From a virus: a stretch of 64,000 nt of DNA. A program made the translations under genes and the position numbers. Below, piece by piece: positions 3,887-27,773 of the stretch. Position 1 is the first letter of the stretch. The number at the start of each line of letters is the position of its first letter. The notes under the pieces are model-generated. The model was not told the origin of the DNA. It did not search any database and saw only the letters and a program-made list of their open reading frames with translations. The stretch is from the IMG/VR virus record IMGVR_UViG_3300045988_135203, positions 49,699 through 113,698 of that record, one strand, 5' to 3'.

Positions 3887-3904
3887 GAGTTAAAGGAGAT
3901 TTGG

Positions 3905-4489: not shown

Positions 4490-4490
4490 T

Positions 4491-5216
4491 ATGGATTTAC
4501 GTCTAGCACTTATGTCTGGAATTGACATACCGGTGCCGGAATGCCAAGTTATTTTACATCAACCGACTATAAAAGAAATTGCTTTTATAGGAAATGAAGA
4601 TTTTTTCATTGGTGTTCAAACACTTTGTCTTTATAAAAGCATGTTTGTAGAGGACAAAAAAGTTCTAGAAGAAATAAATAACTTTCAGATATTTATGACA
4701 GTAATGAATGATAAAGAGTGCGCTGATAAAAAACATGATGTTATGCAAATTTTAACATTATTATTTCCTGGGGCGCAAATATTATTCACTCCACGCTCTT
4801 TGGTAATTAATGGTTTACCTTCTGGAAGTGTTACTATAGATGCTAACAATTTTGAGTTTTTACAAGAAGCTTTAAGATTAATATTTTGTAGTAAAACTGG
4901 TCCAATGGATCAACAGGCTTTCAACCCAGCCGATGATAAAGCTAGAGAAATAGCTCAAAAGCTAATGCGTGGTCGTCAACGTGTTGCCGCACAAAAGGGA
5001 GAATCAAATTCTTGTGTATTTACGCAATATATTTCTATTTTAACTGTTGCATTAAGAATACCTCCGCAAGAATTATTAAATTGTACAATGTATCAATTAT
5101 ATGATTTAATGGAAAGATATTCTTTATATAATGCATGGGATTTAGATGTGCGGGTAAGGCTTGCCGGAGGCAAACCAGATTCTCAACCTGACAATTGGAT
5201 GAAAAATATCCATTGA
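4491..5216 (+). CDS. hypothetical structural protein (241 aa; possibly tail terminator/completion)
   Basis: Starts 1 nt after the stop of the previous gene. Sits within the connector-to-tail transition. No motif recognised. Confidence 0.5.
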   Translation: MDLRLALMSGIDIPVPECQVILHQPTIKEIAFIGNEDFFIGVQTLCLYKSMFVEDKKVLEEINNFQIFMTVMNDKECADKKHDVMQILTLLFPGAQILFTPRSLVINGLPSGSVTIDANNFEFLQEALRLIFCSKTGPMDQQAFNPADDKAREIAQKLMRGRQRVAAQKGESNSCVFTQYISILTVALRIPPQELLNCTMYQLYDLMERYSLYNAWDLDVRVRLAGGKPDSQPDNWMKNIH

Positions 5217-5291
5217 ACAAGTTATTTATTTATTTCTTTTAAATAAATAATTTATTTTATATTTATGAAATTTATAAGGAGGAAATAGCTT

Positions 5292-6293: not shown

Positions 6294-6309
6294 TTAAATA
6301 ATGATTTTT

Positions 6310-6343
6310 AGGGGAGAGATTTTATATCTCTCCCCTAATTTTG
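6310..6343 (+). terminator. rho-independent terminator (AGGGGAGAGAT / ATCTCTCCCCT)
   Basis: 11-bp perfect stem with a 5-nt loop, followed by AATTTT. Confidence 0.75.
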
Positions 6344-6361
6344 CGTTAAAGGAGAATTTAT

Positions 6362-7837: not shown

Positions 7838-7913
7838 TCTAAAAATTTGACTTTGTTATTTTTTTTCGTTACAATTAACATATAAAACAAGTGAAAAAGG
7901 AGAAAAAGTTAGA

Positions 7914-8441
7914 ATGGCTAAAGTAACTTTTAACAAACTAAATTTAACTAAGAATACAGAAATAAAAAATATAGATATTAATGAAAATATTATAGAAGTT
8001 AAACAATATTTACCAGTAGAAGAAAAACTTGAATTAATTTCTTATATTGTAAATATGGCACATGATGAAGATTATAATTTTTCAAATCCTGTAAAAGTTG
8101 AAGTATTTGCGGGAATTGGTATTATTAAATATTATACTAACATAACATTTACTGAAAAACAACTTGAAAATCCTGCAAAAATTTATGATTTATTAAATTC
8201 CAATAATGTTATTAATAATGTTATTGCGGCAATACCAAGTAATGAATATGATGAAATCCGCACTGGTATTGAAGATACAATTAAATCTATTTATCAATAT
8301 CAAAATAGTGCACTTGGTATTTTAGATACCATTGGTCAGGATTATTCAGATTTAAATCTAGAAGCTGATACTATAAATGAAAAACTTAGTAACCCAGATA
8401 ATATGAAGTTACTTCGTGATGTGTTAGCCAAATTAGGTTAA
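7914..8441 (+). CDS. putative tail assembly chaperone (acidic, 175 aa)
   Basis: RBS AAAGGAG. Small, acidic and located immediately upstream of the TMP, which is the classic gpG/XkdN-like chaperone position. No -1 frameshift partner ORF is evident. Confidence 0.4.
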   Translation: MAKVTFNKLNLTKNTEIKNIDINENIIEVKQYLPVEEKLELISYIVNMAHDEDYNFSNPVKVEVFAGIGIIKYYTNITFTEKQLENPAKIYDLLNSNNVINNVIAAIPSNEYDEIRTGIEDTIKSIYQYQNSALGILDTIGQDYSDLNLEADTINEKLSNPDNMKLLRDVLAKLG

Positions 8442-8478
8442 TTATATTACTTTAGAAATTAAATTTAATAGGAGTTAA

Positions 8479-8514
8479 GGGAAGAGTTAATTATTAACTC
8501 TTCCCTCTTTTTTT
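8479..8514 (+). terminator. rho-independent terminator (GGGAAGAGTTAA / TTAACTCTTCCC)
   Basis: 12-bp perfect stem, 3-nt loop, followed by TCTTTTTTT. Confidence 0.8.
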
Positions 8515-8566: not shown

Positions 8567-11500
8567 ATGGCTAAAAAATTGAATGTTGAATTAGGTTTTT
8601 CGGTTAATAATTCATCTGCTAAAAAACAAATAGATGATTTACTTAACCAACTTCAAAAAATTCAAACAACTCCTTCTAAAGTTTTTGATGACAAAGATTT
8701 AAAAGATGCGAGTAAAGCCGCACAAGAATTACAGCAACATATCAGAAATGCTGTTAATACTAATACAGGTAAGTTAGATTTAACTAAATTTGCTACAAGT
8801 TTAAGTAAATCTAATACAAATCTTGAATATTTTAGAAAACAACTTACTAAAGCTGGTACAGATGGGAAAAATAGCTTTGCTAGTCTAACAAATGCAATAG
8901 CACAAGCTGATGCCCCAATGTTAAAATTAAATGGCCGTTTAGGCGAATTTATGACCACTTTGAAAAACTCTGCTAGATGGCAACTTTCTTCAAATATTCT
9001 ACATGGGCTTGAAGGAGCTCTCGGTTCTGCCATTGGATATGCAAAAGATTTAGATGAATCTTTAAATAACATTCGTATTGTAACAGGTAAAAGTACAGAT
9101 GATATGGCTTCTTTTGCAAAAGAAGCCAATGAGGCTGCAAAAGCTTTAAGTACAACTACTACTAATTATACAGATGCAAGTTTAATTTATTATCAACAAG
9201 GTTTATCTGATGAAGAGGTAAAAAAGAGAACTGACATTACTGTTAAGATGGGTAATGTTGCACGTGAAAGCGCAGAAGAAGTTTCACAATACATGACTGC
9301 AATTTGGGAGAACTATGCAGATGGTTCTGAATCATTGGAATCATATGCAGATAAAATTACAGCTTTAGGTGCTGCAACTGCATCAAGTTCTAAAGAAATT
9401 GCGAATGGTCTTGAAAAATTTGTTGCTGTTGGTGACCAAATTGGTTTATCATATGATTATGCAACTGCTGCATTAACTACTATTTTAGCTAAAACTCGTC
9501 AAAGTGAAGATGTAGTAGGTACTGCATTAAAAACAATTTTTGCACGTATCCAAGGCTTTAACTTAGGTGAAACCGCAGATGATGGTGTTACATTAAATAA
9601 ATATTCATCCGCTTTAAAAGCTGTTGGTGTTGATGTATTAGATGTTAATGGTGAAATGAAGGATATGGATACTATTCTTAATGAATTAGCATCTAAATGG
9701 GGAACTTTAGGCAAAGCACAACAGAACGCTTTAGCACAAACAGTTGCCGGTGTTCGTCAATATACTCAATTAGTTGCTCTTATGGATAATTGGGATTTTT
9801 TTAAAGAAAATCTTGATACAATAGAAGATTCAGAAGGTGCCTTACAAAAACAAGCTGATATTTTTGCCGATTCTTGGGAGGCAGCAAGAAAAAGAGTAAA
9901 AGCTTCTTGGGAAGGTCTTTATGATGATTTAATTGATACTGATGGAATTACTAAATTAGATAATATTTTAGCAGATACTCTTGATATATTAGATGATGTT
10001 ATTAATAATTTTGGTGGATTACAAGGCGTCTTAGGAACTATTGCAGGATTTATGATGCAGAAATTCGCCAAAGAAGTACCTGGAGCTTTAAATAATTTAT
10101 TAGCTTCATTAAATTTAATAACTAATAAATCTCAAACTCAGGCTACACAGATGCTCGAAGAAGTGGCAAAACAGCAGAGGCAAGTCGCAAATAATGAACT
10201 TGGAGCTTCTGGTTTACCAACAGCTGAAAATTTAACTTATTCTGCTGAATTACAACAATCTGCAAAATTAGCTGAATTAAAAGCTACTTTAGCCAAAGAG
10301 AGTAAAAATTTATCTACTCAGGAAAAAGAAGAAGCCCAAAGATTAATTGAAATTACTGAAGCTAGATATAAAGATATTCAAGCTATTGGTAAACAAATAG
10401 AAGAGCAAAAAAAAGCTGAAGAATCAAAGGTTAGCGGCTTAGCTTCTAGTATGGCAAATAGAACGGTTACTAGTGAAGGTAAATCTGATGTTGATTATAA
10501 TAAAGATTTAGCTAAAGCCACTAGTGAATATCAAAAACAAATTGATGCTGTTAAAAAATTATCTTTTTCTCTTGGAGAGTTAAAAGAATTAAAAACTACT
10601 ATCTCTGAGCAAAAGGATATTTGGGAAGACCCAAATACTAAGGCTCAACAATTTGAGCAGAACTTAAAATTAATTATTCAGTCAATAGAAGAAACTTCTG
10701 CAGATTTAGCCGGAACTGCGAGTTTTGAAAAGTTAACTAAACAGTTCGATGAATTGCAACAACATTTAAAAGATGGGTCTGGAAATTTTGATGAAATTAA
10801 AAATAAAATTCTAGATACTATGACAGAATTAGCAGGAGACAATGTTGCTTCTGAATTGGAAATTAGTGTTAAAGATGCTCAAAATAGAATACAAGAATTA
10901 GTTGATAACTTAAAAGCTAAAGGCTTTAATGAAGAAGCTGAAAAAATTGAGCAGTTAGGAAAAGCTTTTGAGAAATTAGGAGGTAGCGCGCAAAGAGGTG
11001 CACAAGGTCTAAGAAGTTTAAATGAAATTAATATTCCTAAGCATTTAACTAAAATTTCAGAAGGAATTTTTTCTACTATTGGAGCTTTATCTCAATTAAC
11101 TTTTAGTTTTCAATCAGTGGCTAATGGATTTACTACATTAAATGATTCATCTGCTACAACATCTGAAAGAATTACTGCAGCTACCTCTTCTTTGATGTCT
11201 TTAAGCTTTGCTGGTAAAGCTGCAATTTCTACATTTAAAGGTTTGGCCGAGGCTACTTCTGTAGGGTTTGCTGGAGCTTTGGGAATAGCTACTGTGGCCA
11301 TATCTGCTATATTAGCTGCAATTAGCTATGCTTCCCAAAAGAAAGAAGAAGAAATTAAAAAAGCTAGAGAAGAAGCTCAAAATTCTTTAAATGAAGTTGA
11401 TGAAATTCAAGAAGAAGTAGATAAATTAAACAGTTTATCTGAGAAGTATTCTGATGCTAAAAAGAATTTTGATGAAAATAAAAATGCTGATAATAATTCA

Positions 11501-14500
11501 GCTTTAATAGACAGTACACGGAATTTAGCTGAAGAACTAAATAATGAAATAGATGCTTTAAAAGATACTCATTCTGAATTGGAAAATGTTAATGAAGAGA
11601 ACATTATTGCTCAAGGCACTTATAATGATTTAGAGCAATCTATTAGGGATGTTACTAAAGCCAGAATGGAAGATAAGGCTGCAGTGGCAAAAACTGCAAT
11701 GCAAGATGCTGGAATTGCTTTTTCTAAAAGTATGACCAAAGGTAGAGGTAATACTTTATTTGGAGAATATCAAGCTGATATTAATGCTAATAATTATAAT
11801 AAATATTTAGATGAATCTTTAAGTAAAGCAGATTCTAGTAAAGTTAAATATAATACTTATAATGGGCAAATAAATTTACGTGCAAATTATGATCCAAATG
11901 ATATTGAAGCTACATATAAAAGTGAAATCGAAACTTATGAAGAAGTTTTAAATGCGGTAACTGAAGCTAAGAAAAATGCTAGTGCTGCAGGAGCTGAAGA
12001 ACTTCAAGATTTAGAAAATTCAGATGGTTATAAAAATTTAGTTAGCTGGCTAGAAAAAGCAAAAGATGATTATGATTTATTAACTCAGTCTACTAAAGAG
12101 TTTAAAGATGCTAATGGAGTCCAATATTTACAAGATACTCTTACTGCATTTGGTGATGTAAATGTAGATTCTATTAAAGAATATAGTAAAGTAGTAGATG
12201 ATTTAGCAGAAAGGCTTGCTAAACAGGAGTTAGGTTATGACCAAAATGCTACTTTAACAGATGATCAATTAGAAGCTGTTAAGAAAGAGACTGAAAACCA
12301 AAAAGAATTAGCTCAAAGTACTTTAGAAACTTCTGGAGCATATGATGAGTTTGCTAATTCTTATGGAACTGCACAAGATGCTATTACTAAGGCGACAAAA
12401 AGTAAAGACGAAGGTGGTTCTGGTTGGGATAATAGTAAAGTAGATTTAAATGATTATTATTTAAATCACTTACAAACTGATGATGAAAGAAAGTTATTTG
12501 TTCAATTAGATTTTGACCAAGATCAATCAGTAAAAAATCTTGATGCTCAATTAGATTATTTACAGGCTCAAGCAGATTCTAATAAAGTAATAAACATTAC
12601 AACTTCTATTGATGCAGCTTTAGGAGCATTAGCTTCTAGTAAATCAGATAAGATGTCTACTATTCAAAACCTTATTGATTGGGGTAAAAATGGTATTGAG
12701 TCTTTTGAGGAGTTTAGTCAAAAGACAGAAGAAGAACAATTTGCAACATTAATTGCTTTAGGTAGACAATTCGCACAATCCACTGATGAAAATACTAAAA
12801 AGTCTAAGGATGAAATGAATAAAGCCTTAGAGGAAATAAAACAAAATCGTCAGGATTTAGAAGCAGAATTAACTGCAGCACAGAATAAAGTCGAGAATGC
12901 AAAGACTGATTTAGAAAAAGGTCAAGCTCAGAAAGAGGTAGATGCATTACAAGAACAACTTAATAATATGGATGCCGATATCGAGGAAAAGAAAGAAGAA
13001 ATTAAAAATTTTACTGCGGATAAAGGCTTTAATCCAACTTATGAGACTAATGAAGATTATCTTGATAAGTTAAGTGATCTTGATAAATTAAATACTTTAC
13101 TTTCTACTGGACAAGAATTATCTGGAGGTTTAAAACAAGAACTTGCAGATATGATAGTTTCTCTTGATAATACTGATGTTGAAGAGAAATTTAAACTTCT
13201 TACAAGCACTTTAGAGTCTGGAAAAATTGATATAGATAATTTTAATGAAGCATTATTGCAATTATCTTCTTCAGGAGAAGTAACAGCTGAACATTTACAA
13301 GAAATTTTTATGAAGGATGATGGTTCTATTGATAAGGACTTCATGGAAAGTTACTCTGAAAATTTACAAGCAGTTGCTCAAAATTATGATAATTGTACTG
13401 CAGCTTTAGAAAGATACAAACAAGCTTTAGCTAGTGGAAATGAAACTCAACAACAGATTGCACAATCTGCTCTTGAATTGTCTGTTCGTGCAGGAGAAGA
13501 TGGGGAAAAATATGGAGTAGATGCTGAAAGACTTGAAATTTTAGCTTCTACATATTTAGATGAAGCTAAAAATCTTAAAGCTGTTACTGAAGAAGGAGCA
13601 AATGCTGCTGAAATAGCTGAAGATATGGCAGTTGCTGAAGTCCGTTTGAATGCAGCTATTGAAGATTTATATAGTAATTGGGAAGATTATCAAAGTATTG
13701 TTGATATATGTAATGATACTTTATCCGAAGGCACTGATGCTACTGTACGTCAAATTATGGCAGATAGTAAATTATCTAAATCATTTATTCAATTACGTAA
13801 AGATGTCGCTGGATTATTAAATACATCTGAAGATATGCTTGGTAGTGATTGGATTGTTAGCCAAATGGATAATATTCAAGCAGCTGCAGAAGGTAATGAA
13901 GAAGCAATAGAAGCTTTAAGAGAAAGTGCAGCTCAAGAAATTCTTTTAAACACTAATGTTGATAACGTTTGGAATGATATAGACGGTTTATCTGCAGCAA
14001 TAAATGAAATACCTGATGGAGAAATTGACTTAGAGAGTGATAACTTTATTCAGGGTCTTGTCTATGTAATGCAACAAGCGGGTATGGCTCGTGATGAAAT
14101 CGAAACCGCATTACAAGGAATGGGTATTAGTGTTGATCTCGATGAAGCTGACCAAAGTTTACAAGATGCTATTAATGACTTTCAATGGAATGGTGAAATA
14201 GCTGGTAAAGCATTTGCAGATGGCGTAGCTGCTAATGCAGGTGTTGATGCTGAAACTGTAACGAAACAAGATAAAGCCGAGGATGAACAAACTTATAGTG
14301 GCTTTAAGGTTAATATGCATAGAAATACTAATTATGGTAATGTACCAGTAATTAGTGGTAATAGTTTATTTGGTTTTCATGTAGAACAAGTTCCAACTCA
14401 ATATATTACTTATGATGAACAGATTGAACCTACTCCAGAAAAAACTACTGATACAAAACAACAAACCACTATGGCTTTAAAAGTTAAATCAGCTAGTAAA

Positions 14501-17500
14501 GAATCTGGTGGTCATATTACTACTACTAATAAACCAGGTGGTACTAATAGACAACCTGCGGCTACTAGAGCAAGAGCTGCAAGGACTCCTCATTCTAGTT
14601 CAGGCACTCGTTCAACTCCAAGAGCTAAAACTTTTAGACCTTCTCGTGAAGTTAATGTTTCTGATATTGTTAAAGATGATAAAAAGAAACTTAAAGATGA
14701 AAAAGAACGTTATCATGTAATTAATAATCAATTAGAAGATATTTCTCATAACTTAGCTGATATTGCTCAATTAAAAGATAGAGCATTTGGTAAAAATAAA
14801 TTAAATGCTTTAAAAGCTGAAAATAAAGAGCTTCAATCTCAAGCTAAGGCGCAGGCTAAATTAGTTAAAGAAACTGAAAAATATTTAAAGATTGATAAAG
14901 CTGCAGTTCAAGCATTGGGCGCAACTATAGGGTCTGATGGAACTATTACTAACTATGATGCATTAATGACTAATAAAGTTAAATCTTATAATAATTCTGT
15001 ATTAGCTTATGCTAAAATGCAAAAAGCTGCAGAAGATGAATATAATAGAGCAATGCAAGATGCTACCAATAGATATAATGCCAGTAGTAGAAGTGATGCA
15101 GATAGCGCTATTTATGATGCGGCAGCTGAACGAGCTAAAGAGCGCAAAGATGAAGCTGATAAACAAGCTGAACGTTATAAAAAACAAATTGATGAAGATT
15201 ATAAAGATTTTACTGATAAAATTAATCAATATGAAGAAACTTATGATAAAATGCGTGAAGAAAAATTAAAAGAGCAACAAATTCAAGATCAAATTTATGA
15301 CAATGAACTTGAAACTATCCAATATGAAGTTGAAATTAAAGTTGATGTTGATGAAGACACTCTTAAATTTTTAAATGAGCTTTTTGACCAAATGGGTGAT
15401 AGCGCAGATTATGCAGCAGACCGTATTGCTAATTTAACTAAACAAGCTAAAGCTTATAATAATGAAGCTAAAGCTTATGAAAATGGTATTTCTAGTATTC
15501 TTAAACATGCTGGCGCAGATCAAGAACTTATCAATGGATTTATTAATGGTAAATTAACTAAAGACCAGATTAAAGAAATGGGAGCACTTGGTTTTACTGA
15601 AGGTGATGCTGAAGCTTTAAGGGATTATAGTGATAAATTAATTGAACTTAATAATAATTATAGAGACCTTAGAGATACTATGGTTGACCAAGTAAGTGCG
15701 GCATTTGATGAATATATTGAAAAGCTTGAAGATGCATCGGATAAAATTGAAAAACTTCAAAAAGTTACTGAAACTTATAAGAATATTATTGATGTAGTTG
15801 GAAAACGTATTCTTGACCCTACTGGTAAAATTACAAAAGCTTTAGATGATGCGGCATTTAATTCTGCAAAAAATCTAACTAAGTCAAATAAATCTACTTT
15901 AGACTTTGCTGAGAATGCATTAAAAGAAGCTAAAAAAACTAGAGATTCATTAGCTAAACAATATGGTGAAGATAATGAAACTGTTAGAAAATGGGATGAA
16001 CAAGTTAAGGAACTTGAAGATAAACGTGATGAAGCTTATTCAGATTGGTTAGATGCTTGGGAAGCTGAATGTGAAGCCGCAAGAACAACTTTTGAAGATA
16101 CATTAGAGTCTATTATAACTAATTTTGAAACTAAAATTTCAGGATTAGCAGGTAGTCTTGACATGTTAAATGATGCTTATGAGCGTCAGTCTAAAGTTGA
16201 TGAAGTATATGTTGATGATTATGAAAAAATATATCAACTTTCAAAATTATCACGAGAGATAAGTAAATCTATTGATGATACAAGTCAAGTAAAAAATAAA
16301 GAGAAATTAAAAAAATTACAAGATGAGATTGTTAAAAAACAAGAACAAGGTGTAAAATTAAGTCAATATGATTTAGATTATCTTGAGAAAAAATATCAAT
16401 TAGAATTAGCTAGACAGCAATTAGAAGAAGCAAAAAATGCAAAAACGCAAGTTACAATGAAACGTGATTCAGAAGGTAATTATGGTTATGTATATACTGC
16501 GGACGCTAATGCGGTTGCAGATGCTGAACAAAACTATGAAGATAGACTTCATGAATTACAAGAATTAAATAGTGAGTATATTAAAACTTTACAAGGTGAT
16601 ATTATTCAAGTCCAACAAGATTTAGAAAATGACCTTAAAGATTTTGCAGAGAATTTTAAAGGTACTCAAGAAGAGTATGAGAAAGGTGTTGCTGAAATTA
16701 CAGAGAAGTATAAAACTTTAATGGAATATAAACAACAACAAATGCAAAATGTATTAAGTAATAATCGTGATTTATATATGAATGATTGGAAATCATATTC
16801 TGAAGCAACTGGATATAAATTATCTGTAGATGCTGATTATCTTGATAAATGGGAAGAAACAAATTATTCAATTATTACAGGGTATGAAACTCTTGAAGAT
16901 GCTATGAGTGCTTGGCGTGATGGTGTTGAACAAGTAACTAATGATGCTAATGAAGCTTATAGAATCTGGTATGAACAAACCAATCAAGCTTTGGAAGATG
17001 GTGGAACTTCAATGGATAATTTTGCTAATAAAGCAGAAGAAGTTGCAGGTGAAGTTACTAGCCAAACAGACAAAATTGCTGAAGGCGCAAAAGAAATGTC
17101 AGAGACTTTTAAAACAAGTTTTGATGACATCCTTGAGAATGCAAAAACATTTTCACAACAGTTTGAAGATGTTATTATGGGAATTATTGATTCCAATACA
17201 AAACTTGCAGATTCTATCAGAAAAGTATTAGCGGAAGCTTCTAAAGTTTCTAGTTCAACAAATTCTGGAACTAATGGAAATTATACTGGAGGTACTTCAG
17301 ATAATATCAATGGAAATGGTTCTTCTACTAGTGGAGGAAGTAATTCTGGCACAGATGCAAGTGGTTTAGATTTTACAGATGGCACTAAAGGTAACAGAAA
17401 AAGTCGTCGAAGTAAAGGAAAAGGCAGAACTTCTAAACTTGATGCAAAAACTAAATATGGTGTTGCTTTAGCTATTATTGAAGGTACTTATGGATGGGGC

Positions 17501-18013
17501 GATGACCCATTTCGTTCTGGAAAGCTTACTCAAAAATTTGGAAGTAATAATGGTATTCAAGCTATTGTTAATAAGCTTTGGGCTGAAGGTAAAGTATTTA
17601 GTGGAGCTTGGGAAGGAGCTTATTATGGTTTAACTTCTAAAGATATGCCTAGATATGCTTATAATAGATTTAATACTGGTGGATATACAGGTTATTGGCC
17701 TGGAGATACTGGTAAATTAGCTTTTCTTGATAGCAAAGAAATTGTCCTTAATAAAGATGATACAGCTAATTTCCTTAGCGCAGTAGATATCGTTAGAGAT
17801 ATTGCTAAGACGATTGATTTAACAGCATCTAGTGCAAGCAATAGTTTTTCTAGACTATTTGCGGCGGCAGGTATAAAAACCGCAGCTAATACACTTGAGC
17901 AAGAAGTTCATATTACTGCAGAATTTCCTAATGCAACAAATAAAAATGAAATTCTTGATGCATTTGATAATGTTATTAATCTTGCTACACAATATGCTAA
18001 TAGAAGTAAATAA
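8567..18013 (+). CDS. tail tape measure protein, 3148 aa
   Basis: Residues ~150-330 (ESLNNIRIVTGKS...GLSDEEVKKRTDITVKMGNVARESAEEV...GTALKTIFARIQG) match the conserved TP901-family/PhageMin_Tail TMP core as I recall it. The rest is very long predicted coiled coil rich in E/K/Q/L/A. There is a hydrophobic segment near aa 880-920 (FAGALGIATVAISAILAAISYA). The gene sits in the canonical position after the tube and chaperone genes. Confidence 0.85.
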   Translation: MAKKLNVELGFSVNNSSAKKQIDDLLNQLQKIQTTPSKVFDDKDLKDASKAAQELQQHIRNAVNTNTGKLDLTKFATSLSKSNTNLEYFRKQLTKAGTDGKNSFASLTNAIAQADAPMLKLNGRLGEFMTTLKNSARWQLSSNILHGLEGALGSAIGYAKDLDESLNNIRIVTGKSTDDMASFAKEANEAAKALSTTTTNYTDASLIYYQQGLSDEEVKKRTDITVKMGNVARESAEEVSQYMTAIWENYADGSESLESYADKITALGAATASSSKEIANGLEKFVAVGDQIGLSYDYATAALTTILAKTRQSEDVVGTALKTIFARIQGFNLGETADDGVTLNKYSSALKAVGVDVLDVNGEMKDMDTILNELASKWGTLGKAQQNALAQTVAGVRQYTQLVALMDNWDFFKENLDTIEDSEGALQKQADIFADSWEAARKRVKASWEGLYDDLIDTDGITKLDNILADTLDILDDVINNFGGLQGVLGTIAGFMMQKFAKEVPGALNNLLASLNLITNKSQTQATQMLEEVAKQQRQVANNELGASGLPTAENLTYSAELQQSAKLAELKATLAKESKNLSTQEKEEAQRLIEITEARYKDIQAIGKQIEEQKKAEESKVSGLASSMANRTVTSEGKSDVDYNKDLAKATSEYQKQIDAVKKLSFSLGELKELKTTISEQKDIWEDPNTKAQQFEQNLKLIIQSIEETSADLAGTASFEKLTKQFDELQQHLKDGSGNFDEIKNKILDTMTELAGDNVASELEISVKDAQNRIQELVDNLKAKGFNEEAEKIEQLGKAFEKLGGSAQRGAQGLRSLNEINIPKHLTKISEGIFSTIGALSQLTFSFQSVANGFTTLNDSSATTSERITAATSSLMSLSFAGKAAISTFKGLAEATSVGFAGALGIATVAISAILAAISYASQKKEEEIKKAREEAQNSLNEVDEIQEEVDKLNSLSEKYSDAKKNFDENKNADNNSALIDSTRNLAEELNNEIDALKDTHSELENVNEENIIAQGTYNDLEQSIRDVTKARMEDKAAVAKTAMQDAGIAFSKSMTKGRGNTLFGEYQADINANNYNKYLDESLSKADSSKVKYNTYNGQINLRANYDPNDIEATYKSEIETYEEVLNAVTEAKKNASAAGAEELQDLENSDGYKNLVSWLEKAKDDYDLLTQSTKEFKDANGVQYLQDTLTAFGDVNVDSIKEYSKVVDDLAERLAKQELGYDQNATLTDDQLEAVKKETENQKELAQSTLETSGAYDEFANSYGTAQDAITKATKSKDEGGSGWDNSKVDLNDYYLNHLQTDDERKLFVQLDFDQDQSVKNLDAQLDYLQAQADSNKVINITTSIDAALGALASSKSDKMSTIQNLIDWGKNGIESFEEFSQKTEEEQFATLIALGRQFAQSTDENTKKSKDEMNKALEEIKQNRQDLEAELTAAQNKVENAKTDLEKGQAQKEVDALQEQLNNMDADIEEKKEEIKNFTADKGFNPTYETNEDYLDKLSDLDKLNTLLSTGQELSGGLKQELADMIVSLDNTDVEEKFKLLTSTLESGKIDIDNFNEALLQLSSSGEVTAEHLQEIFMKDDGSIDKDFMESYSENLQAVAQNYDNCTAALERYKQALASGNETQQQIAQSALELSVRAGEDGEKYGVDAERLEILASTYLDEAKNLKAVTEEGANAAEIAEDMAVAEVRLNAAIEDLYSNWEDYQSIVDICNDTLSEGTDATVRQIMADSKLSKSFIQLRKDVAGLLNTSEDMLGSDWIVSQMDNIQAAAEGNEEAIEALRESAAQEILLNTNVDNVWNDIDGLSAAINEIPDGEIDLESDNFIQGLVYVMQQAGMARDEIETALQGMGISVDLDEADQSLQDAINDFQWNGEIAGKAFADGVAANAGVDAETVTKQDKAEDEQTYSGFKVNMHRNTNYGNVPVISGNSLFGFHVEQVPTQYITYDEQIEPTPEKTTDTKQQTTMALKVKSASKESGGHITTTNKPGGTNRQPAATRARAARTPHSSSGTRSTPRAKTFRPSREVNVSDIVKDDKKKLKDEKERYHVINNQLEDISHNLADIAQLKDRAFGKNKLNALKAENKELQSQAKAQAKLVKETEKYLKIDKAAVQALGATIGSDGTITNYDALMTNKVKSYNNSVLAYAKMQKAAEDEYNRAMQDATNRYNASSRSDADSAIYDAAAERAKERKDEADKQAERYKKQIDEDYKDFTDKINQYEETYDKMREEKLKEQQIQDQIYDNELETIQYEVEIKVDVDEDTLKFLNELFDQMGDSADYAADRIANLTKQAKAYNNEAKAYENGISSILKHAGADQELINGFINGKLTKDQIKEMGALGFTEGDAEALRDYSDKLIELNNNYRDLRDTMVDQVSAAFDEYIEKLEDASDKIEKLQKVTETYKNIIDVVGKRILDPTGKITKALDDAAFNSAKNLTKSNKSTLDFAENALKEAKKTRDSLAKQYGEDNETVRKWDEQVKELEDKRDEAYSDWLDAWEAECEAARTTFEDTLESIITNFETKISGLAGSLDMLNDAYERQSKVDEVYVDDYEKIYQLSKLSREISKSIDDTSQVKNKEKLKKLQDEIVKKQEQGVKLSQYDLDYLEKKYQLELARQQLEEAKNAKTQVTMKRDSEGNYGYVYTADANAVADAEQNYEDRLHELQELNSEYIKTLQGDIIQVQQDLENDLKDFAENFKGTQEEYEKGVAEITEKYKTLMEYKQQQMQNVLSNNRDLYMNDWKSYSEATGYKLSVDADYLDKWEETNYSIITGYETLEDAMSAWRDGVEQVTNDANEAYRIWYEQTNQALEDGGTSMDNFANKAEEVAGEVTSQTDKIAEGAKEMSETFKTSFDDILENAKTFSQQFEDVIMGIIDSNTKLADSIRKVLAEASKVSSSTNSGTNGNYTGGTSDNINGNGSSTSGGSNSGTDASGLDFTDGTKGNRKSRRSKGKGRTSKLDAKTKYGVALAIIEGTYGWGDDPFRSGKLTQKFGSNNGIQAIVNKLWAEGKVFSGAWEGAYYGLTSKDMPRYAYNRFNTGGYTGYWPGDTGKLAFLDSKEIVLNKDDTANFLSAVDIVRDIAKTIDLTASSASNSFSRLFAAAGIKTAANTLEQEVHITAEFPNATNKNEILDAFDNVINLATQYANRSK

Positions 18014-18020
18014 AATTTTA

Positions 18021-18053
18021 GGGAAGAGTATAATTACTCTTCCCTATTTTTTA
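18021..18053 (+). terminator. rho-independent terminator (GGGAAGAGTA / TACTCTTCCC)
   Basis: 10-bp perfect stem, 4-nt loop, followed by TATTTTTT. Lies directly after the TMP stop codon. Confidence 0.8.
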
Positions 18054-18072
18054 TTTGGGCAAATGATATGAA

Positions 18073-18101
18073 TTGACAAGTTAAAAAAATTATGATAATA
18101 T
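18073..18101 (+). promoter_or_regulatory. sigma-A-like promoter (TTGACA, 17-bp spacer, TAATAT)
   Basis: Consensus -35 TTGACA at 18073-18078, a 17-nt spacer and TAATAT at 18096-18101. Lies between the TMP terminator and the next gene's RBS. Confidence 0.5.
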
Positions 18102-18129
18102 AGAATAAGGAGTGAAAGGAGGCCATCAG

Positions 18130-21100
18130 ATGGCAGATAATGCGAAAGCTTTGGACGATATATTTAAGTCTATAGATATTATTATAGATGGTAGACTTCA
18201 AGGATTAAAATTTGATAAAACTATTACTTGTTCCATTTTAAGTAATAAGAATGCCGCTCGGGGTGAGTATACTGTTACAGATGGCGCAACTACCTTTAAG
18301 GCATATTCTGATGTTACAACTTATCAAGTTAATCAATATGTTTATGTTAAAGTGCCTAATGGTAGTTTTAATAATAAAAAAATAATTACAGGAAGATATA
18401 TAGAAGAAAATAGTGAATACTATACTTATGTTCCACCACTTGATAGTTTTATAGATATGAGTCATAATCTCATTGATAATAGCATTAAACCATTAGGCTT
18501 AGTAGCTAATGGTAAAGAAAAAGAAATTGTTGTGTGGGAAAAGCATAATCTACATTATAATGATTATGATAGAATAGGTATTCGCGCAGGTTTTAGAACT
18601 TGGCTTAATCAATATGATTTGGTCAAAGGTAATTATGGTTTAAAACTTTATGTAGTAATTAAACGTGGAAAAGAAAATGAAGCGATTAATAAGCAAGATA
18701 TTTTTTCTGTATATTTTACTTTAGATACATCTGATTTCTATGGAAGTCTATATAATTATGAAACTTATTATAATCAAGAAAAAGTATTTGATATAGGACA
18801 ATACTTAGATGATGAGCATTATATTTCTGATATAAGATTAGTATTTTTCCAAGATAATAATTTTGAAGATGCTAAAGGAAATAGAATAGCTAGCGCAATA
18901 CCAGATTCTGGGGTAGAATTACCCAAAAATATTTTTATGGCAAGCCCTTATATTGGTATTGGTTATAATAAAAATAAGTATCCATCAGATACAGCATTAT
19001 TATATACTTTTGATTCTTTAGATTATAAGGCGTTATTATCTGACGAAGATAAAGCTAATTTTATTGCGGCTTTGGATGTAAATTCTGAAACTTATAATCA
19101 AGATAGAGATAATATACTTTATGATGCGGCAACCGCAAAAAATCTTTTAAATCAGCTTAATAGACGTAAATTACAAGTTCGATGGATTCATTTTGATGAA
19201 GATATGAATCCATATGTATTTGATAAAAATTCTGATTTACCAGAAACCGCGCAAGTACATTGGTATAGATATTTTCTTGAAGAAGAACTTAGTGATAAAC
19301 TTGCTGGAGCCTTTTGGAAAGAAATTGAAACACCAGATAAAAATTACTTTGAGTATAAAGATTTTGAGCCAGATATGACTCGACAGCATGATATGCTTAA
19401 AGTGATTATTGAGTATCCTTCTCGTGAAACTATTGCTAAACAAATTTATGATTTAAGTCTTAAAACTGGTGAAAAAGAAAATCCAGAAACAGGTAAGATA
19501 GATGAAGTTGGAGATTTACTTTATTCTTTTCTTCCCTCAAATAAAAAGCCAGATGATAAGACATATTATGATTATATAGAAGAAGCTAAATTAAATTTAA
19601 TTAATGCAATTCAAAAACTTGATAATTTACTTGAAGATTATGAGTTACAAGCGAATAGAGTTAATGAATTGTATAAAGAATTGGGTGAAAGACAGCAAGA
19701 ATATAAAAAAGCTCATCCTGAAAAAACAGACGATGATTTAGCTACTGATGAAAAATATCTAGCTATTGCTACATATTTTAATGACCAAGTAGATAATTTA
19801 ACTGATAGAACTAATGAAAAGCGTGACGAATTACAAACTATTAGTAATGAAGTAAGTGCTTATGAATCAGAAATTAATTATTATTCTTCTAGTGTCGTAG
19901 AATTTAAAAATTCTACTAATGTGATTGATAGTACTTCTGTTGATTTAATTAGCGGTCTTGATATTGTATGTGATCCAGAAGGATATAATGGTGTTTATAG
20001 AATTTATGATGATAATGGTGACATTATGAGTTCTAGTGAAAGTATAAAGAAAAGAATCTTGACTGCAACATATGAATCTTTAGTTACAGGTGATAAAACT
20101 CTTGATACTGCGGAAAAAATTTATTGGTATATTCCAATTACTAATACAATGATTCAATATCCAACAGAAGAAACTGAATATTCCTATTATACAAAGGTTG
20201 ATATAACTAATAGTGAATATAATGCGGCATTATATAAAGATAAATATTTTATAAAAGATTTATCTGGTATTTACCATCCTGCTACTTCTGATTATTCTAA
20301 TACTGAAAAATATTATGAAAGAAATACAACCACAACTTCAAAAACTAAGGACGGAAATTATTTTGTTATTTGTAGGAATGGTGTAAGTATTGATTCTGAG
20401 GCTGGAACTGAAGAATCTAAGAATGATAGTCAAATTTTTAGAGTTAAATCTTATTATAGTCAAAGTGCTGTAAATAATACTATTAGATGTATTATCGAAA
20501 AAAATGGGCGTAAATTTGAAAAAGATATTACATTAGTATTTGGTCCAACAGGAACAAATGGTACTACTTATACTTTATCATTAGAGTTTGATAATAAAGT
20601 TTCTGCGGTGACTGTTGCGGCAGATGATGGGAAAAATGGAAGTGGAATTTATAATTCAGTTAAAGTAATTCCGCATTTATATGATTATCAAAATAATGAT
20701 ATAACCGCAAAATTTGCTTCTGCGGGTAAAATTTCTTACTCTTGGTACTGCAAAGGTAATGAGGGATTAGGTATTAGTGACCCAGATGAAACGGATGGTT
20801 CCATTGAATTATTTGGTAAAAGTAGTAATATTGAAGATTATAAGTATTATATACTTTTATGTACAGTAGAAGATGCTACAGAAATTGTACCAAATAGTAA
20901 AATTAATTTAACTGCATATTTACCTATTCCAGTTAGAGCAAGTGAAATATATACTGCTTTTGATGGTGCTACTAAGATTACTTATGATTCAAATGGCGGT
21001 AATCCGCAGTTTTATAAAGATGGATACAAAATATATAAATATAACAATTCTTCTGGAAATAATGAGCCTATAATTAATGCTACTTGGGAAATATCTTTAG

Positions 21101-24100
21101 GTGATGATACTGTTGGTATTGATTTAAAAGATGAATATAAAACAACATCTGTAATTACTCAGTATTATCCTACTGTTACTACAGAAGGTGTTTTAAGTGC
21201 GCCAGCTATGTATTTAAAAGAGAACGGAAAGCAAGTTGGTGTATCATGTAAAGTAGATGGAAAAGTCGTATGGTTTCAACCTTTATATATTTATCAGAAT
21301 TCTTATTCATCTTCATTACTTAACTCCTGGGATGGTAGTTTGACACAAGATGAAAAAAATGGTACTATATTATCAACAATGATAGGAGCCGGAAAAAAGG
21401 ATACCTTTAACCGATTTAATGGTGTGCTTATGGGTGATATAAGTGCAGCGAATAATCAACATGATATTGGATTATATGGATATCATGAAGGCGTTCAAAG
21501 TTATGGGCTTAATATTAATGGTACTGCTTTTATAGGTAAATCTGGTAGGGGTCAGATTAAATTTAATGGAAATTCTGGTTATATCCAGAGCGGAAATTAT
21601 GGTAAGTCTGGTGCAGGTGGAATGCAGATTGACCTTAATAATGGTATATTAAAAATCATTGGTGAAAAATTTACTCAAGCACAAATTAAAGCAAATGGTA
21701 GTATTTTTAAAGGTGTAGACAAAGCCTATCAAGCTCAAATTGATTATTATAAATCAATTAAAGAAAGATTGGATGAGCAAGTAAAAAAATGTTCTGCTAA
21801 AGTAACAAGTTTAACAACTGTGCAAAAAGAATATCAAACTAATGCTAATAATTATAATCAGGCTATAACTGATGAAAATAAAGATAAGCAAACTGCTCAA
21901 TCTAATTTAGATATATTAAATGGTACTGGAACGAGTTCCATTAAACATATACAAAACCAAATAACTAAGGTGCAAGAGCAAATTAAAATAAAGAAGCAAG
22001 AATTAACAAATGCTCAAAAGAGTTCATTAAAAGCTTCTGATAAAATGAAAAAAATTTCAGAAATCAAAACAAAAATTTCTGAATTAAATTCGCAATTAAG
22101 TGGTTATCAAGCTAATTTAAGACAGAAAAAAACTGAGCGTGATAATTTAAAAGCTACAATAACCGTATGTGAAGGTAAGATTAAAACTTATACTCAAAGA
22201 AAGAATTTTTATATAAAGCGTCTTGAAGAAATAAATAATGAAATTACAACTTTAGGTAATGATAAGACTAAATATGAAAAACAATCTGGTAATTATGAAA
22301 ATTTAATTACAAGTCTTAATGATACTATTACAAAATATAATGCGGCAACTGGTGATACAAAGATAAAATATGAAAATTCTATGGTGAATTATCTTAGGGA
22401 GAATTTACCTGATAGTTTTGAAATATCTACTAAAACTACTGGAAGTCAAATTTTAATTTCATCTTTAAGCCCTTATTTAAAAATTATTTCTAATGATAAT
22501 AAGACCTTACTAAATATAGCAGATAATAGTTATTATTTACAGACAAATGATTTTGTTCAGCATGTATTAACTAATGGGGAATTTACAACTAAAGGTCAAG
22601 GTATGAAACTTGATTTACAGAATGGAAAAATTATTTCTTATAATTTTGATTTATTAGCTTTAGATTCTTCCGATGGAAATAATGCTGGGTCTTATATTAG
22701 AATAAGTAAATTTGGAAATCCTTATTTGAGAGTTCATTTTGAAGATAAGACTAAAAATCAAAAGTTAAATATATTAGAAATAACTAAAACTAATTTTTAT
22801 TTATGCTCTCATAATTGGGAAGCTAATAAGGAAGGCATTAATATAGATTTAACTAATGGTCGTATTACTGCTTTTAACAATTTTAACTTAAAAGCCACAA
22901 TAAATACCACAAATCAAAATGATAAACGATATAATGGTTCTTATGTACAAATTAAAAGTGGTGACCCATTTTTTACCGTTCATTTTGAAGATTCATATTC
23001 TCCCAAAAAAAGTTTAGACCTTATTAAAATAGGAATTAATAATTGGTTTATGCAATCTCAAGATTGGGTGAATGGAAAATCCGGTATTCGTTTTGACATG
23101 GCGAAAGGAAAAATTACTGCTTATAGTTTTACAATTAAAGCATATAAAACTGAAAAAAAATATATTTATATAGATAGTACAGATAATACGCATCCATTAA
23201 AAATAGGTAATAAATTTAGTGTAGATTGGGAAGGTAAAGTAACTGCAAGTTATATTGATGCTAGTGGTGGAACTATTGGTCCATTTACTATAGATAGTAA
23301 AGCATTGTATTCTGAAGGAAATGCATTAGGTTCTTCTGGAGTATATTTAGGTAAAGCAGGTCTTAGCGTTAATAATGATTTAATAGTACGAACTTCTCCA
23401 GGAACAAATGAATATACTCTTACTGTTGGTGGTACTTCTTATTTTGGAGGACCAATGACAGTTGCTGGTTCTTTAGGTGTTACCAGTAATGGAAGTATTA
23501 CTGCCGCTGGTAGCATTACTGCAAATGGAACGCTTACTACGAATGGAAGTTTAGTAGTTGCTAATGGTGGTAGTTTTGGTGGAGATATAAATGTAATTGG
23601 AAATCTTAAAGTAAGTGGTAGTATTTATGATTCTAATGGCAGATGGAGTTCTACTGGACAAGATGGTGGTAGTCAGAAATTATATGGTACTTCTGGTAAT
23701 ATTGGTAATTGGGGTATTAATGATGGCCGTATTGCTAATGGTCAAACAACTTTAGGTAGCGATGGAATAATTACTGCTGGAAATATTACTATTAATGGTG
23801 GCGATGGAAGCAATGGAACTATTACATTTGGAAATAATGCAAATATTCATCAGGGCTCATCTACCCTTTATTTACAGGGTGGTACTAATGGAGTACAAAT
23901 AGGGCTTGGAAATGTATCTTCATCTTTGGATTATCCAATTATAATGGCGACAAATACAAAAGTTAATGGAACTTTTAGTGCTACAACAATAAAGCAAGGG
24001 TCTCAAGAGCTTAAAGCTTTGGCTTTTGCGGATGACATAAAAAAAAAGTTTAACATAAGTTATGTAAATTTTGATTTTTGGTATAAAGTGAGCGAAAAAA

Positions 24101-24585
24101 CTATAAATATAAATAAAAATTCTTCAAATAGTAAATCGTCTTATTATGTTAGCTCTGTTTATGGATACAAAAAGAATGGAAGCTCAACTACTTATGCTGT
24201 AAGAAAACATAGCTATGTTTATTCTGCAACTTTTAGACGACCTCAAGGAACAGGTTACTATTATTATACTAAGCTATCATTTGATGGATATCCAGGACCT
24301 GATGTTCTAGGTGATGAAACTTTTTATAGTGGTCCCGTTGCTATAATTCCTTACGATTATGAATATGTAGATAATTATGATTATGTTACACTTTCAGAAG
24401 GTTATTATTTATATACTCATCAAGATAATCCAACTGTAGATTTTAATACAGTAGAAAAATCTGGATACACTAAAAAAACAATGGCGCTATCTAAAAAAGG
24501 TACTAAAAAAGTTACATTTGGCCCTAATGACCCTACAGATTCAAGTTCAGATACAATCACATTAACTAATGTAGATTTTTCTTAA
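18130..24585 (+). CDS. giant tail/baseplate-associated protein (2152 aa from ATG 18130) with a coiled-coil region, three tandem ~90-aa repeats and beta-helix-like fibre repeats
   Basis: The ORF track's GTG 18112 is replaced by ATG 18130, which has AGGAGG 7 nt upstream. Coiled-coil stretch at ~21720-22350. Three ~90-aa tandem repeats at ~22594-23280 (GQGMKLDLQNGKIISYNF... / GINIDLTNGRITAFNNF... / GIRFDMAKGKITAYSF...). Gly-rich SLGVTSNGSITAAGSITANGTLTTNGSLVVANGG fibre-like repeats at ~23470-23630. Confidence 0.7.
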   Translation: MADNAKALDDIFKSIDIIIDGRLQGLKFDKTITCSILSNKNAARGEYTVTDGATTFKAYSDVTTYQVNQYVYVKVPNGSFNNKKIITGRYIEENSEYYTYVPPLDSFIDMSHNLIDNSIKPLGLVANGKEKEIVVWEKHNLHYNDYDRIGIRAGFRTWLNQYDLVKGNYGLKLYVVIKRGKENEAINKQDIFSVYFTLDTSDFYGSLYNYETYYNQEKVFDIGQYLDDEHYISDIRLVFFQDNNFEDAKGNRIASAIPDSGVELPKNIFMASPYIGIGYNKNKYPSDTALLYTFDSLDYKALLSDEDKANFIAALDVNSETYNQDRDNILYDAATAKNLLNQLNRRKLQVRWIHFDEDMNPYVFDKNSDLPETAQVHWYRYFLEEELSDKLAGAFWKEIETPDKNYFEYKDFEPDMTRQHDMLKVIIEYPSRETIAKQIYDLSLKTGEKENPETGKIDEVGDLLYSFLPSNKKPDDKTYYDYIEEAKLNLINAIQKLDNLLEDYELQANRVNELYKELGERQQEYKKAHPEKTDDDLATDEKYLAIATYFNDQVDNLTDRTNEKRDELQTISNEVSAYESEINYYSSSVVEFKNSTNVIDSTSVDLISGLDIVCDPEGYNGVYRIYDDNGDIMSSSESIKKRILTATYESLVTGDKTLDTAEKIYWYIPITNTMIQYPTEETEYSYYTKVDITNSEYNAALYKDKYFIKDLSGIYHPATSDYSNTEKYYERNTTTTSKTKDGNYFVICRNGVSIDSEAGTEESKNDSQIFRVKSYYSQSAVNNTIRCIIEKNGRKFEKDITLVFGPTGTNGTTYTLSLEFDNKVSAVTVAADDGKNGSGIYNSVKVIPHLYDYQNNDITAKFASAGKISYSWYCKGNEGLGISDPDETDGSIELFGKSSNIEDYKYYILLCTVEDATEIVPNSKINLTAYLPIPVRASEIYTAFDGATKITYDSNGGNPQFYKDGYKIYKYNNSSGNNEPIINATWEISLGDDTVGIDLKDEYKTTSVITQYYPTVTTEGVLSAPAMYLKENGKQVGVSCKVDGKVVWFQPLYIYQNSYSSSLLNSWDGSLTQDEKNGTILSTMIGAGKKDTFNRFNGVLMGDISAANNQHDIGLYGYHEGVQSYGLNINGTAFIGKSGRGQIKFNGNSGYIQSGNYGKSGAGGMQIDLNNGILKIIGEKFTQAQIKANGSIFKGVDKAYQAQIDYYKSIKERLDEQVKKCSAKVTSLTTVQKEYQTNANNYNQAITDENKDKQTAQSNLDILNGTGTSSIKHIQNQITKVQEQIKIKKQELTNAQKSSLKASDKMKKISEIKTKISELNSQLSGYQANLRQKKTERDNLKATITVCEGKIKTYTQRKNFYIKRLEEINNEITTLGNDKTKYEKQSGNYENLITSLNDTITKYNAATGDTKIKYENSMVNYLRENLPDSFEISTKTTGSQILISSLSPYLKIISNDNKTLLNIADNSYYLQTNDFVQHVLTNGEFTTKGQGMKLDLQNGKIISYNFDLLALDSSDGNNAGSYIRISKFGNPYLRVHFEDKTKNQKLNILEITKTNFYLCSHNWEANKEGINIDLTNGRITAFNNFNLKATINTTNQNDKRYNGSYVQIKSGDPFFTVHFEDSYSPKKSLDLIKIGINNWFMQSQDWVNGKSGIRFDMAKGKITAYSFTIKAYKTEKKYIYIDSTDNTHPLKIGNKFSVDWEGKVTASYIDASGGTIGPFTIDSKALYSEGNALGSSGVYLGKAGLSVNNDLIVRTSPGTNEYTLTVGGTSYFGGPMTVAGSLGVTSNGSITAAGSITANGTLTTNGSLVVANGGSFGGDINVIGNLKVSGSIYDSNGRWSSTGQDGGSQKLYGTSGNIGNWGINDGRIANGQTTLGSDGIITAGNITINGGDGSNGTITFGNNANIHQGSSTLYLQGGTNGVQIGLGNVSSSLDYPIIMATNTKVNGTFSATTIKQGSQELKALAFADDIKKKFNISYVNFDFWYKVSEKTININKNSSNSKSSYYVSSVYGYKKNGSSTTYAVRKHSYVYSATFRRPQGTGYYYYTKLSFDGYPGPDVLGDETFYSGPVAIIPYDYEYVDNYDYVTLSEGYYLYTHQDNPTVDFNTVEKSGYTKKTMALSKKGTKKVTFGPNDPTDSSSDTITLTNVDFS

Positions 24586-24625: not shown

Positions 24626-25024
24626 ATGCAAACAACAAAGACTTTAAAAAATGGTGAAATTTTTGAAATGGCAACAAATTTAATTGAGGCTTTTCAGAAA
24701 GATACAGAATCTGGAGAAAAGACTTATCCAATTAAAGTTTTGTTTTATCTTAGAAAAAATATGAAAACTCTTACAGAGCTTGCTCAGGATATTGAGAAAG
24801 CAAGAGTTGAAATTATTCAAAGATATGGAACTCCATCAGAGGAGAATCCAGAGCAATATCAATTTGAGACACAAGAAAAAATTGATGCGGCAAATAAAGA
24901 ATTTGAAGAGCTGTTCGGTTTAGAGCAGGAAGTTACTATTTATACAATTCCATTAGAGGCTTTCAATGACATGGAACTCACTGAAAAACAGATGGATGCA
25001 GTAATGGAAATGATTGAGGAGTAA
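24626..25024 (+). CDS. small acidic hypothetical protein (132 aa), possibly an assembly chaperone
   Basis: RBS AAAGGAGATAAAGGA. Very acidic. Sits between two large tail genes. Confidence 0.55.
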   Translation: MQTTKTLKNGEIFEMATNLIEAFQKDTESGEKTYPIKVLFYLRKNMKTLTELAQDIEKARVEIIQRYGTPSEENPEQYQFETQEKIDAANKEFEELFGLEQEVTIYTIPLEAFNDMELTEKQMDAVMEMIEE

Positions 25025-27769: not shown

Positions 27770-27773
27770 TAAT

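Follow-up and report, generated by a model that had tools for sequence, protein, structure and literature searches.

Which kind of protein occupies the position directly behind the tape measure protein (TMP) gene if the gene found there encodes more than two thousand amino acids (aa)? The position after the TMP gene is routinely used to annotate the distal tail protein (Dit), and a small ring protein is usual there. The question is raised by a stretch of virus DNA of 64,000 nt (IMG/VR record IMGVR_UViG_3300045988_135203, positions 49,699 to 113,698; hereafter the window), in which an open reading frame (ORF) of 2151 aa, the target of this analysis, directly follows the TMP gene. A first-pass annotation of this DNA had considered the encoded protein closer to a central tail spike or fibre than to a Dit, a view supported by the lack of any Dit or Tal family match, by the fold matches listed and by a conservation gradient along the protein. 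With a confidence somewhat better than even, we regard the target as a tail-tip fibre of the virion that is probably a trimer and probably axial (central), placed at the tube end where the TMP ends. The trimeric fibre reading follows the logic of the central fibre of phage T5, contained here in one chain.

The target gene and its domain layout

The target ORF lies on the + strand at 18130-24585, from ATG 18130 to TAA 24583-24585, in an AT-rich window (GC about 30%) whose + strand carries nearly all long ORFs. At the base composition of the window a stop is expected about every 12 codons and the chance of 2151 stop-free codons is about 6e-84, so that the open frame is not a product of chance; the length of 2152 aa given at first had counted the stop codon. 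ATG 18130 is the likely start, since AAAGGAGG spans 6-13 nt upstream of it and since the N-terminus MA(D/N/E) is common to the homologues of the protein. The upstream gene was confirmed as the TMP gene by Pfam and PHROG, and the 116-nt gap between its stop and the target start contains a terminator-like hairpin and a promoter-like site:

8567..18013, + strand: tape measure protein (TMP), 3148 aa; Pfam PhageMin_Tail 1.5e-27, best PHROG match TMP at 1.2e-66
18019..18046, + strand: terminator-like hairpin (12-bp stem, 5 GC pairs), then the T-run TTTTTTATTT; just 3' of the TMP stop
18073..18101, + strand: promoter-like site TTGACA, 17-nt spacer, TAATAT, with TG extension; consensus match only
18116..18123, + strand: ribosome-binding site AAAGGAGG, read from the sequence, 6 nt before ATG 18130
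18130..24585, + strand: coding sequence (CDS) of the 2151-aa family member, stop included; identical protein P0001 and 137 homologues in metagenomes

The hairpins before (8478-8506) and after (18019-18046) the TMP gene have an identical stem, AGGGAAGAGT...ACTCTTCCCT, followed by a T-run, and zero such same-stem pairs bracketing the TMP gene are expected by chance. A hairpin with T-run also follows the TMP stop in five out of six related loci (including L002, L005, L007, and L008), the stem sequence differing from locus to locus. Behind the post-TMP hairpin, TTGAC-17-TA(T/A)A(A/T)T was found in three loci, with L002 and L007 carrying TTGAC(C/T)-17-TATAAT at the position equivalent to 18073..18101. 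As far as can be read from these signals, the target gene seems to be the first gene of a separate transcription unit that is preceded by a putative terminator and a promoter-like site.

Two AlphaFold models were obtained, one for residues 1-1190, built from a 74-sequence alignment and confident (mean pLDDT 80), and one for residues 1151-2151 as a monomer (pLDDT 69). Together with the alignments, they give the following layout:

18130..18414, + strand: residues 1-95, conserved amphipathic helix (4-24) and five-stranded small beta-barrel (30-90), assigned OB-like
18427..19479, + strand: residues 100-450, beta-sandwich domains and short helices, the remainder of the conserved N-terminal module; pLDDT mostly 80-93
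19564..19866, + strand: residues 479-579, four-helix hairpin region where insertions vary within the family; predicted helices, heptad signal
19876..21297, + strand: residues 583-1056, array of Ig-like beta-sandwich domains; long all-beta region in the model
21298..21684, + strand: residues 1057-1185, most conserved motif of the family and repeat copy R0; many invariant columns
21715..22404, + strand: residues 1196-1425, antiparallel two-helix coiled-coil hairpin between R0 and R1, about 100 residues per arm
22429..23409, + strand: residues 1434-1760, beta-structured repeats R1-R3 and degenerate R4; motif G(M/I)x(I/L)DLxNGxI
23437..23829, + strand: residues 1770-1900, Gly/Ser/Thr/Asn-rich segment; 24% Gly
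23830..24582, + strand: residues 1901-2151, variable, aromatic-rich C-terminal region; hypervariable part 24130-24429, model of low confidence

The helical region at residues 479-579 is unaligned in distant homologues, and for the Ig-like strings the monomer prediction is good. Residues 1057-1185 contain the motif NSWDGSLT.DEKNGTILSTM.GAGKKD..NRFNGVLMGD ... GKSG.GQI.F(D/N)GN, with 98% identity among close relatives. This conserved part is poorly predicted as a monomer: residues 1061-1083, which overlap the most conserved motif of the family, have a pLDDT below 50, and the first shaft strands then follow. We propose that residues 1057-1185 represent a hinge and the start of trimerisation.

The coiled coil, put at about 200 aa in the first-pass annotation, turned out slightly longer (residues 1196-1425, nt 21715-22404; about 230 aa). 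It features a strong heptad signal, and its AlphaFold helices (pLDDT 82-93) fold back on each other in antiparallel orientation, giving a hairpin of about 15 nm in the model. It was found only in the clade sharing at least about 43% identity, whereas in other homologues the repeats follow R0 without interruption, indicating that the coiled coil is an insertion at the repeat junction; the antiparallel geometry makes such an insertion possible without breaking the shaft. Of the earlier designation 'SMC-like', the antiparallel, intramolecular geometry was retained and membership in SMC proteins was not. The SMC/Rad50 assignment was rejected, as there is no ATPase head or hinge and NCBIfam SMC_prok_B scored 36 bits against a cut-off of 567; the SMC_prok_B match is confined to residues 1185-1415, and SMC/Rad50 matches reflect coiled-coil similarity only. 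An AhlB/MakA (ClyA-family) pore former was likewise rejected, since residues 1196-1425 are polar, rich in Lys, Asn, and Thr, and contain no hydrophobic stretch. Foldseek with the model of residues 1151-2151 was swamped by helical hairpins (SMC arms, chemoreceptors, AhlB) and was silent on the repeats and the tip.

The three tandem repeats of about 90 aa noticed earlier were recovered in a different register, with R1 at 1441-1530, R2 at 1531-1615, and R3 at 1616-1690 (about 75-90 aa each; pairwise E-values 5e-7 for R1/R2 and 6e-12 for R2/R3), and were joined by two degenerate copies, R0 (about 1140-1180) before the coiled coil and R4 after R3. In the C-terminal model they show recurring strand patterns (pLDDT about 70-87), and no DNA-level tandem repeat was found under the protein repeats. 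The Gly-rich segment is also wider than first described. The beta-helix proposed for it received a weak Pfam match to Bactofilin (E=0.099 here, 7e-4 in one relative), and in the monomer model the segment is extended with no strands assigned; residues 1770-1900 are probably a trimeric beta-helix. For residues 1901-2151 we propose the role of a receptor-binding tip. Within this region, a junction with the sequence LAFADDIKKKF (nt 24019-24051) is conserved.

Extent, conservation and gene linkage of the family

The first homologue search yielded 137 proteins of 1275-2440 aa, many of them encoded on gut-metagenome contigs of 130-205 kb. Alignment mapping placed the conserved core of the family at residues 1-440 and 540-1180, followed by the repeats. 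A profile of residues 1-450 retrieved 3312 representatives of 50%-identity clusters (973 with E<=1e-30); the module was N-terminal in 150 out of the 150 matches listed, most of these proteins being 1100-3077 aa long, and the shortest members (about 1100-1250 aa) consist essentially of the core and a short Gly-rich tail. Among 34 close relatives, identity to the query amounts to 86-98% for residues 1-1200, 70-86% for the coiled coil, 75-91% for the repeats, 63-73% for residues 1750-1900, and 26-62% for residues 1900-2150, with 26-29% at residues 2001-2100; in several relatives at 88-94% identity, the last 8% of the query is no longer covered by the alignment. As judged from the alignments, such a drop from the N- to the C-terminus is classically seen in receptor-binding fibres whose tip can be exchanged. 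Other members have helix-rich inserts in their N-terminal part, of about 70-100 aa in three cases (P0044, P0045, P0063) and of about 800 aa in a fourth (P0066), so that helical arms appear to be inserted at two or more hot spots in the family.

The TMP gene is located directly upstream of the family member in seven out of the seven loci examined, namely the window, L002, L005, L006, L007, L008, and phage phAss-1 (OQ749652). In all of these except phAss-1, and as far as the contigs reach, the same gene order was seen: about 490-550 aa, about 175 aa, TMP, family member, about 130 aa, about 900 aa, about 830-1070 aa, about 120 aa, and 1400-1900 aa. Among the related loci, TMP lengths between 2358 and 3944 aa were seen, with the extremes truncated by contig ends. 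Apart from the TMP, the ordered neighbour genes had no match in a Pfam scan. The conserved gene order around the TMP is atypical.

For phAss-1, the re-coded annotation lists ORF13 as a TMP of 3149 aa and ORF14 (14730-21197) as 'hypothetical protein' (PMC10607447). ORF14 is 2155 aa long with 27 in-frame TAG codons read as Gln, and directly follows the TMP. It matched the family HMM with E=6e-50, its N-terminal 95 aa being 41% and its hinge motif 35% identical to the target. By these comparisons phAss-1 ORF14 is a true, full-length family member, in which no coiled-coil stretch aligns with that of the target. With megablast, 22 kb had no match in the phage collection, and tblastn of the 2151-aa protein against phages detected phAss-1 only, at the hinge motif only. 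The organisation of phAss-1 differs from that of the window: terminase and portal genes come after ORF14, and homologues of the 912-aa and 862-aa genes, which lie close behind the target gene in the window, are found elsewhere, while the family member stays beside the TMP. Since phAss-1 keeps only the family member at this place, the linkage between TMP and family is tighter than that with the other tail-tip genes, and this points to a role where the TMP ends, at the tail tip.

The hinge-motif profile (window 21265-21645) also retrieves more than 200 unnamed proteins that are only 70-225 aa long and stem for the most part from JGI metagenomes (P0372-P0491). These are probably family fragments, split by in-frame TAG codons in recoded phages or by short contigs; in the GenBank record of phAss-1, the hinge motif lies within a fragment CDS of 227 aa. 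A pattern-based scan that covered 185,579 species genomes of bacteria and archaea produced a single match, on a contig of a metagenome-assembled genome (MAG); another scan gave zero. Phages with this family are thus seemingly not common as prophages. The sole match, L005 (JAGBVS010000114.1), is a 50-kb contig of a yak caecum MAG labelled Bacteroidales, on which TMP, family member, and small genes are arranged as in the other loci; probably, a contig of phage origin ended up in the bin of this MAG, and it is not taken as host evidence.

Comparison with known tail-tip proteins and weighing of alternatives

Scans of the 2151-aa protein against Pfam, PHROG, and NCBIfam gave no family match beyond coiled-coil noise below the cut-offs, and 25 further and 27 more distant family members compared with Pfam and PHROG yielded nothing informative (Pfam thresholds E<=0.1 for the target, E<=0.05 for the 25, and E<=0.001 for the 27). 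In Pfam, the Dit family Sipho_tail (PF05709) and the Tal/hub family Prophage_tail (PF06605) were unmatched in all 53 members; PHROG and NCBIfam likewise returned no Dit, and no hub profile for the target. No enzymatic domain was detected in the target or in the 52 other members, and the family profiles had no match among PDB sequences. With hhalign, probabilities below 1% were obtained for the Dits SPP1 gp19.1 and T5 pb9, and nothing for the hubs T5 pb3 and SPP1 gp21 or for the tail proteins of Enterococcus phage VRE9_2. The matches listed for the model of residues 1-1190 are generic Ig-like, pilin, adhesin, MG, cadherin, carbohydrate-binding module (CBM), and OB folds. Among them there was no Dit fold and no convincing gp27/Tal hub fold, the sole hub-containing entry being the lambda tail-tip chain 8k35_A (E=1.1e-4, probability 0.21, TM-scores 0.06-0.09).

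The closest likeness in architecture was found to the central fibre of T5, which consists of three independent FNIII strings, a hinge, and then a trimeric beta-helix spike with a receptor-binding end (PMC10038345). The C-terminal FNIII domains of T5 pb3 and the fibre protein pb4 resemble the target in the succession of Ig-like/FNIII strings, hinge, beta shaft with small decorations, and receptor-binding end, the trimer being presumed for the target. The strings before the shaft that are typical of the pb4 type correspond to an all-beta model whose best matches are tandem Ig-like arrays. Both pb4 and the target are encoded downstream of the TMP, and T5 has a terminator and a promoter between the TMP gene (pb2) and the next gene, where the window has a terminator-like hairpin and a promoter-like site. 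A motif of 9-13 residues, GM(K/Q)IDLxNG, located at the very C-terminus of pb4, is also common to the target; with E=0.027-0.15 in single comparisons the match is not significant, so that the likeness to T5 represents an analogy and not family membership. Several differences were also apparent. In T5, a Dit (T5.139, pb9 position) and the hub pb3 lie between TMP and pb4, whereas the target gene comes first; the target is three times as long as pb4; it has an extra N-terminal helix, an OB-like barrel, shaft repeats of about 80 aa, and the coiled-coil insertion; and it seems to carry its own variable tip, whereas T5 has a separate receptor-binding protein, pb5.

Applied to the target, the T5 logic would operate as follows. 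Residues 1-1056, modelled as helix, OB-like barrel, and a chain of Ig-like/CBM-like domains, would form one independent string per subunit, the strings docking on the tail tip and possibly binding surface glycans weakly. At residues 1057-1185, the three chains would merge in a hinge and would continue as a beta shaft built of the repeats of about 80 aa. In the clade of the target, the coiled-coil arm of about 15 nm at the repeat junction may serve as a spacer or lateral strut. The Gly-rich, probable beta-helix would then lead into the hypervariable, aromatic-rich tip, which would bind the host receptor and set the host range.

Several points weigh against a trimeric axial fibre. Trimerisation draws on analogy and on a monomer model of the shaft that is extended or of low confidence, and there is no significant sequence homology of the family to T5 pb4, T5 pb3, or SPP1 gp21. 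The conserved part of about 1100 aa, which accounts for almost the entire length of the shortest members, is more in keeping with a core component of the baseplate than with the anchor of a fibre. The fold lists comprise the best 50-60 matches without query coordinates, and weaker domain matches would fall outside them. In addition, axial and lateral placement are not separated by sequence alone.

Part of these observations would suit a tail-tip core protein, i.e., an equivalent of Dit and/or Tal/hub with an unrecognised fold and a C-terminal fibre, comparable to lambda gpJ, T5 pb3, or SPP1 gp21. The post-TMP slot is occupied by the family in all seven loci, including phAss-1 with its other tail genes elsewhere; the core of about 1100 aa is comparable in size to T5 pb3 (949 aa) and SPP1 gp21 (1111 aa); the shortest members have little beyond it; the scanned neighbours had no Dit or hub match; and Foldseek returned the lambda tail-tip chain mentioned above. 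That match, however, has a low probability and low TM-scores and stands among many Ig-array matches, Sipho_tail and Prophage_tail were unmatched throughout the members scanned, hhalign against T5 pb9 and pb3 and SPP1 gp19.1 and gp21 gave nothing, and the conserved 862-aa neighbour is an alternative hub candidate. Known proteins of the type of lambda gpJ, SPP1 gp21, and TP901-1 ORF47 are also large (about 900-1100 aa and more) tail-tip proteins encoded downstream of the TMP, and Tal/hub proteins with a fibre extension have, as the target does, a conserved N-terminal and a variable, host-interacting C-terminal part. Their defining gp27-like fold was, however, undetected in the target among the listed matches, and Tal-type genes follow a Dit gene (in SPP1, gene 19.1 and then gene 21), whereas the target follows the TMP directly. 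A Dit, also one of the 'evolved' kind with inserted carbohydrate-binding modules, shares this position directly after the TMP; the target is four to eight times the typical Dit size, and its C-terminal 1000 aa, being trimeric-fibre-like, fit poorly to a hexameric ring. Altogether, a tail-tip core protein is considered unlikely.

A lateral fibre or adhesin on the baseplate periphery or the collar, raising adsorption as T5 pb1 does, would share the fibre-like conservation gradient and the adhesin-like folds with the axial fibre, and the giant proteins of 1794, 2647, and 1369 aa or the two small S74 fibres encoded further downstream could then be axial instead. The strict linkage to the TMP, especially in phAss-1, fits the axial tip better, and the anchor portion would be very large for a lateral fibre, so that this placement is regarded as unlikely as well. 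Far less probable still is a protein outside the virion, such as a secreted or surface Ig-domain adhesin or a defence or exclusion protein encoded in the late region by coincidence, or, in view of the coiled coil, a ClyA/AhlB-type pore former. Such a role would agree with the best fold matches, which are bacterial surface adhesins and pilins, with the Foldseek matches of the hairpin to the toxins AhlB and MakA (E 0.013-0.05), and with a faint NCBIfam match to MakE (E=0.093). However, the gene is embedded in a conserved tail gene block, the family gave one match (the MAG contig) among the 185,579 species genomes, and reading of the sequence revealed no signal peptide, LPXTG, hydrophobic head, or tongue, the hairpin tip being polar (LNSQLSGYQANLRQ); SMC arms and chemoreceptors are matched just as well by the helices, so that these matches are generic.

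Neighbouring genes and meaning for the phage group

The genes directly behind the target are conserved as well:

24626..25024, + strand: conserved 132-aa downstream gene; matches phrog_1401, of unknown function
25031-27769 and 27753-30341: genes of 912 and 862 aa, a conserved pair

A gene of 126-137 aa directly follows the family member in the window, L002, L005, L006, L007, and L008. From its position, we would guess that the 132-aa protein is possibly a fibre assembly or attachment factor; it is not a paralogue of the small 122-aa protein. Distant homologues of the 912-aa and 862-aa proteins were found in the Enterococcus phages VRE9_1 to VRE9_4, EF1, EF5, and H1 (134-142 kb), in phAss-1, and in an unannotated 176-kb gut phage record (MT835469). 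Neither VRE9_2 nor the 176-kb record yielded a homologue of the target, and in both the pair is separated from the TMP; a search of the literature on the VRE9 Enterococcus phages retrieved nothing relevant. The 862-aa protein has 3460 homologues, all of them unnamed, and, with most of its close relatives at least 95% identical, its conservation greatly exceeds that of the target. This protein may be considered a hub candidate; its N-terminus aligned faintly with residues 117-160 of T5 pb3 in hhalign (E=0.11, not significant), and PDB sequence searches with the neighbour proteins gave no match. By sequence, the neighbouring proteins that were scanned gave no match to any Dit or hub family, so that a Dit could be an unannotated neighbour, e.g., the protein of about 130 aa or that of about 900 aa. 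As any of them could be the Dit, the proposal of the first-pass annotation that the giant protein stands in place of a Dit, within an atypical baseplate, was not demonstrated.

The tail module spans about 50 kb, and its other proteins give weak matches to tail and tail-fibre PHROGs. It runs on for about 28 kb at 30732-58428 with ORFs of 1794, 2647, and 1369 aa, the second featuring BspA-type leucine-rich repeats (Pfam 2.8e-11) and the third matching tail-fibre PHROGs. Next to each other lie two genes for fibre-like proteins, of 366 aa (54971-56071) and 418 aa (56075-57331), which have PHROG families in common and each carry a Peptidase_S74 intramolecular chaperone domain. At the other end of the window, the first ORF (68-1174, 368 aa) matches phrog_4088 and shows a faint HK97-fold major capsid match (NCBIfam E=1.4e-4, below the cut-off); the head and tail genes at 1268-8441, upstream of the TMP, are otherwise unannotated. 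No sheath-like protein was detected, which is consistent with a non-contractile tail and is no proof of it, and no tRNA genes were found in the window. The TMP lengths are nearly equal here (3148 aa) and in the distantly related phAss-1 (3149 aa). As a rule, each TMP residue corresponds to about 1.5 Å of tail, which for 3148 aa implies a tail of roughly 450-500 nm.

The family is widespread and unannotated, with about 3300 clusters at 50% identity and no Pfam, PHROG, or PDB coverage. It fills the post-TMP slot in gut phages with tape measures of about 3000 aa and has the look of a modular adhesin fibre, its unusual features being the gene position and the coiled-coil insertion. At the post-TMP slot of these phages, a Dit annotation based on position would be wrong. 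In phages with long tails, a core of Dit and Tal is considered almost universal. It is conceivable, if quite improbable, that this family and not a Dit-Tal pair assembles on the TMP/tube end in a large group of long-tailed phages of the gut (about 135-200 kb), as a single giant protein that would dock by its N-terminal helix and OB-like barrel, would have neither the Dit nor the gp27 fold, and would carry insertions at two hot spots as length-adjustable arms. If the family were indeed the tail-tip core, it would represent a new solution to tail-tip assembly. The 2151-aa protein is a prime candidate for the host-range determinant of an abundant, uncultured phage group.

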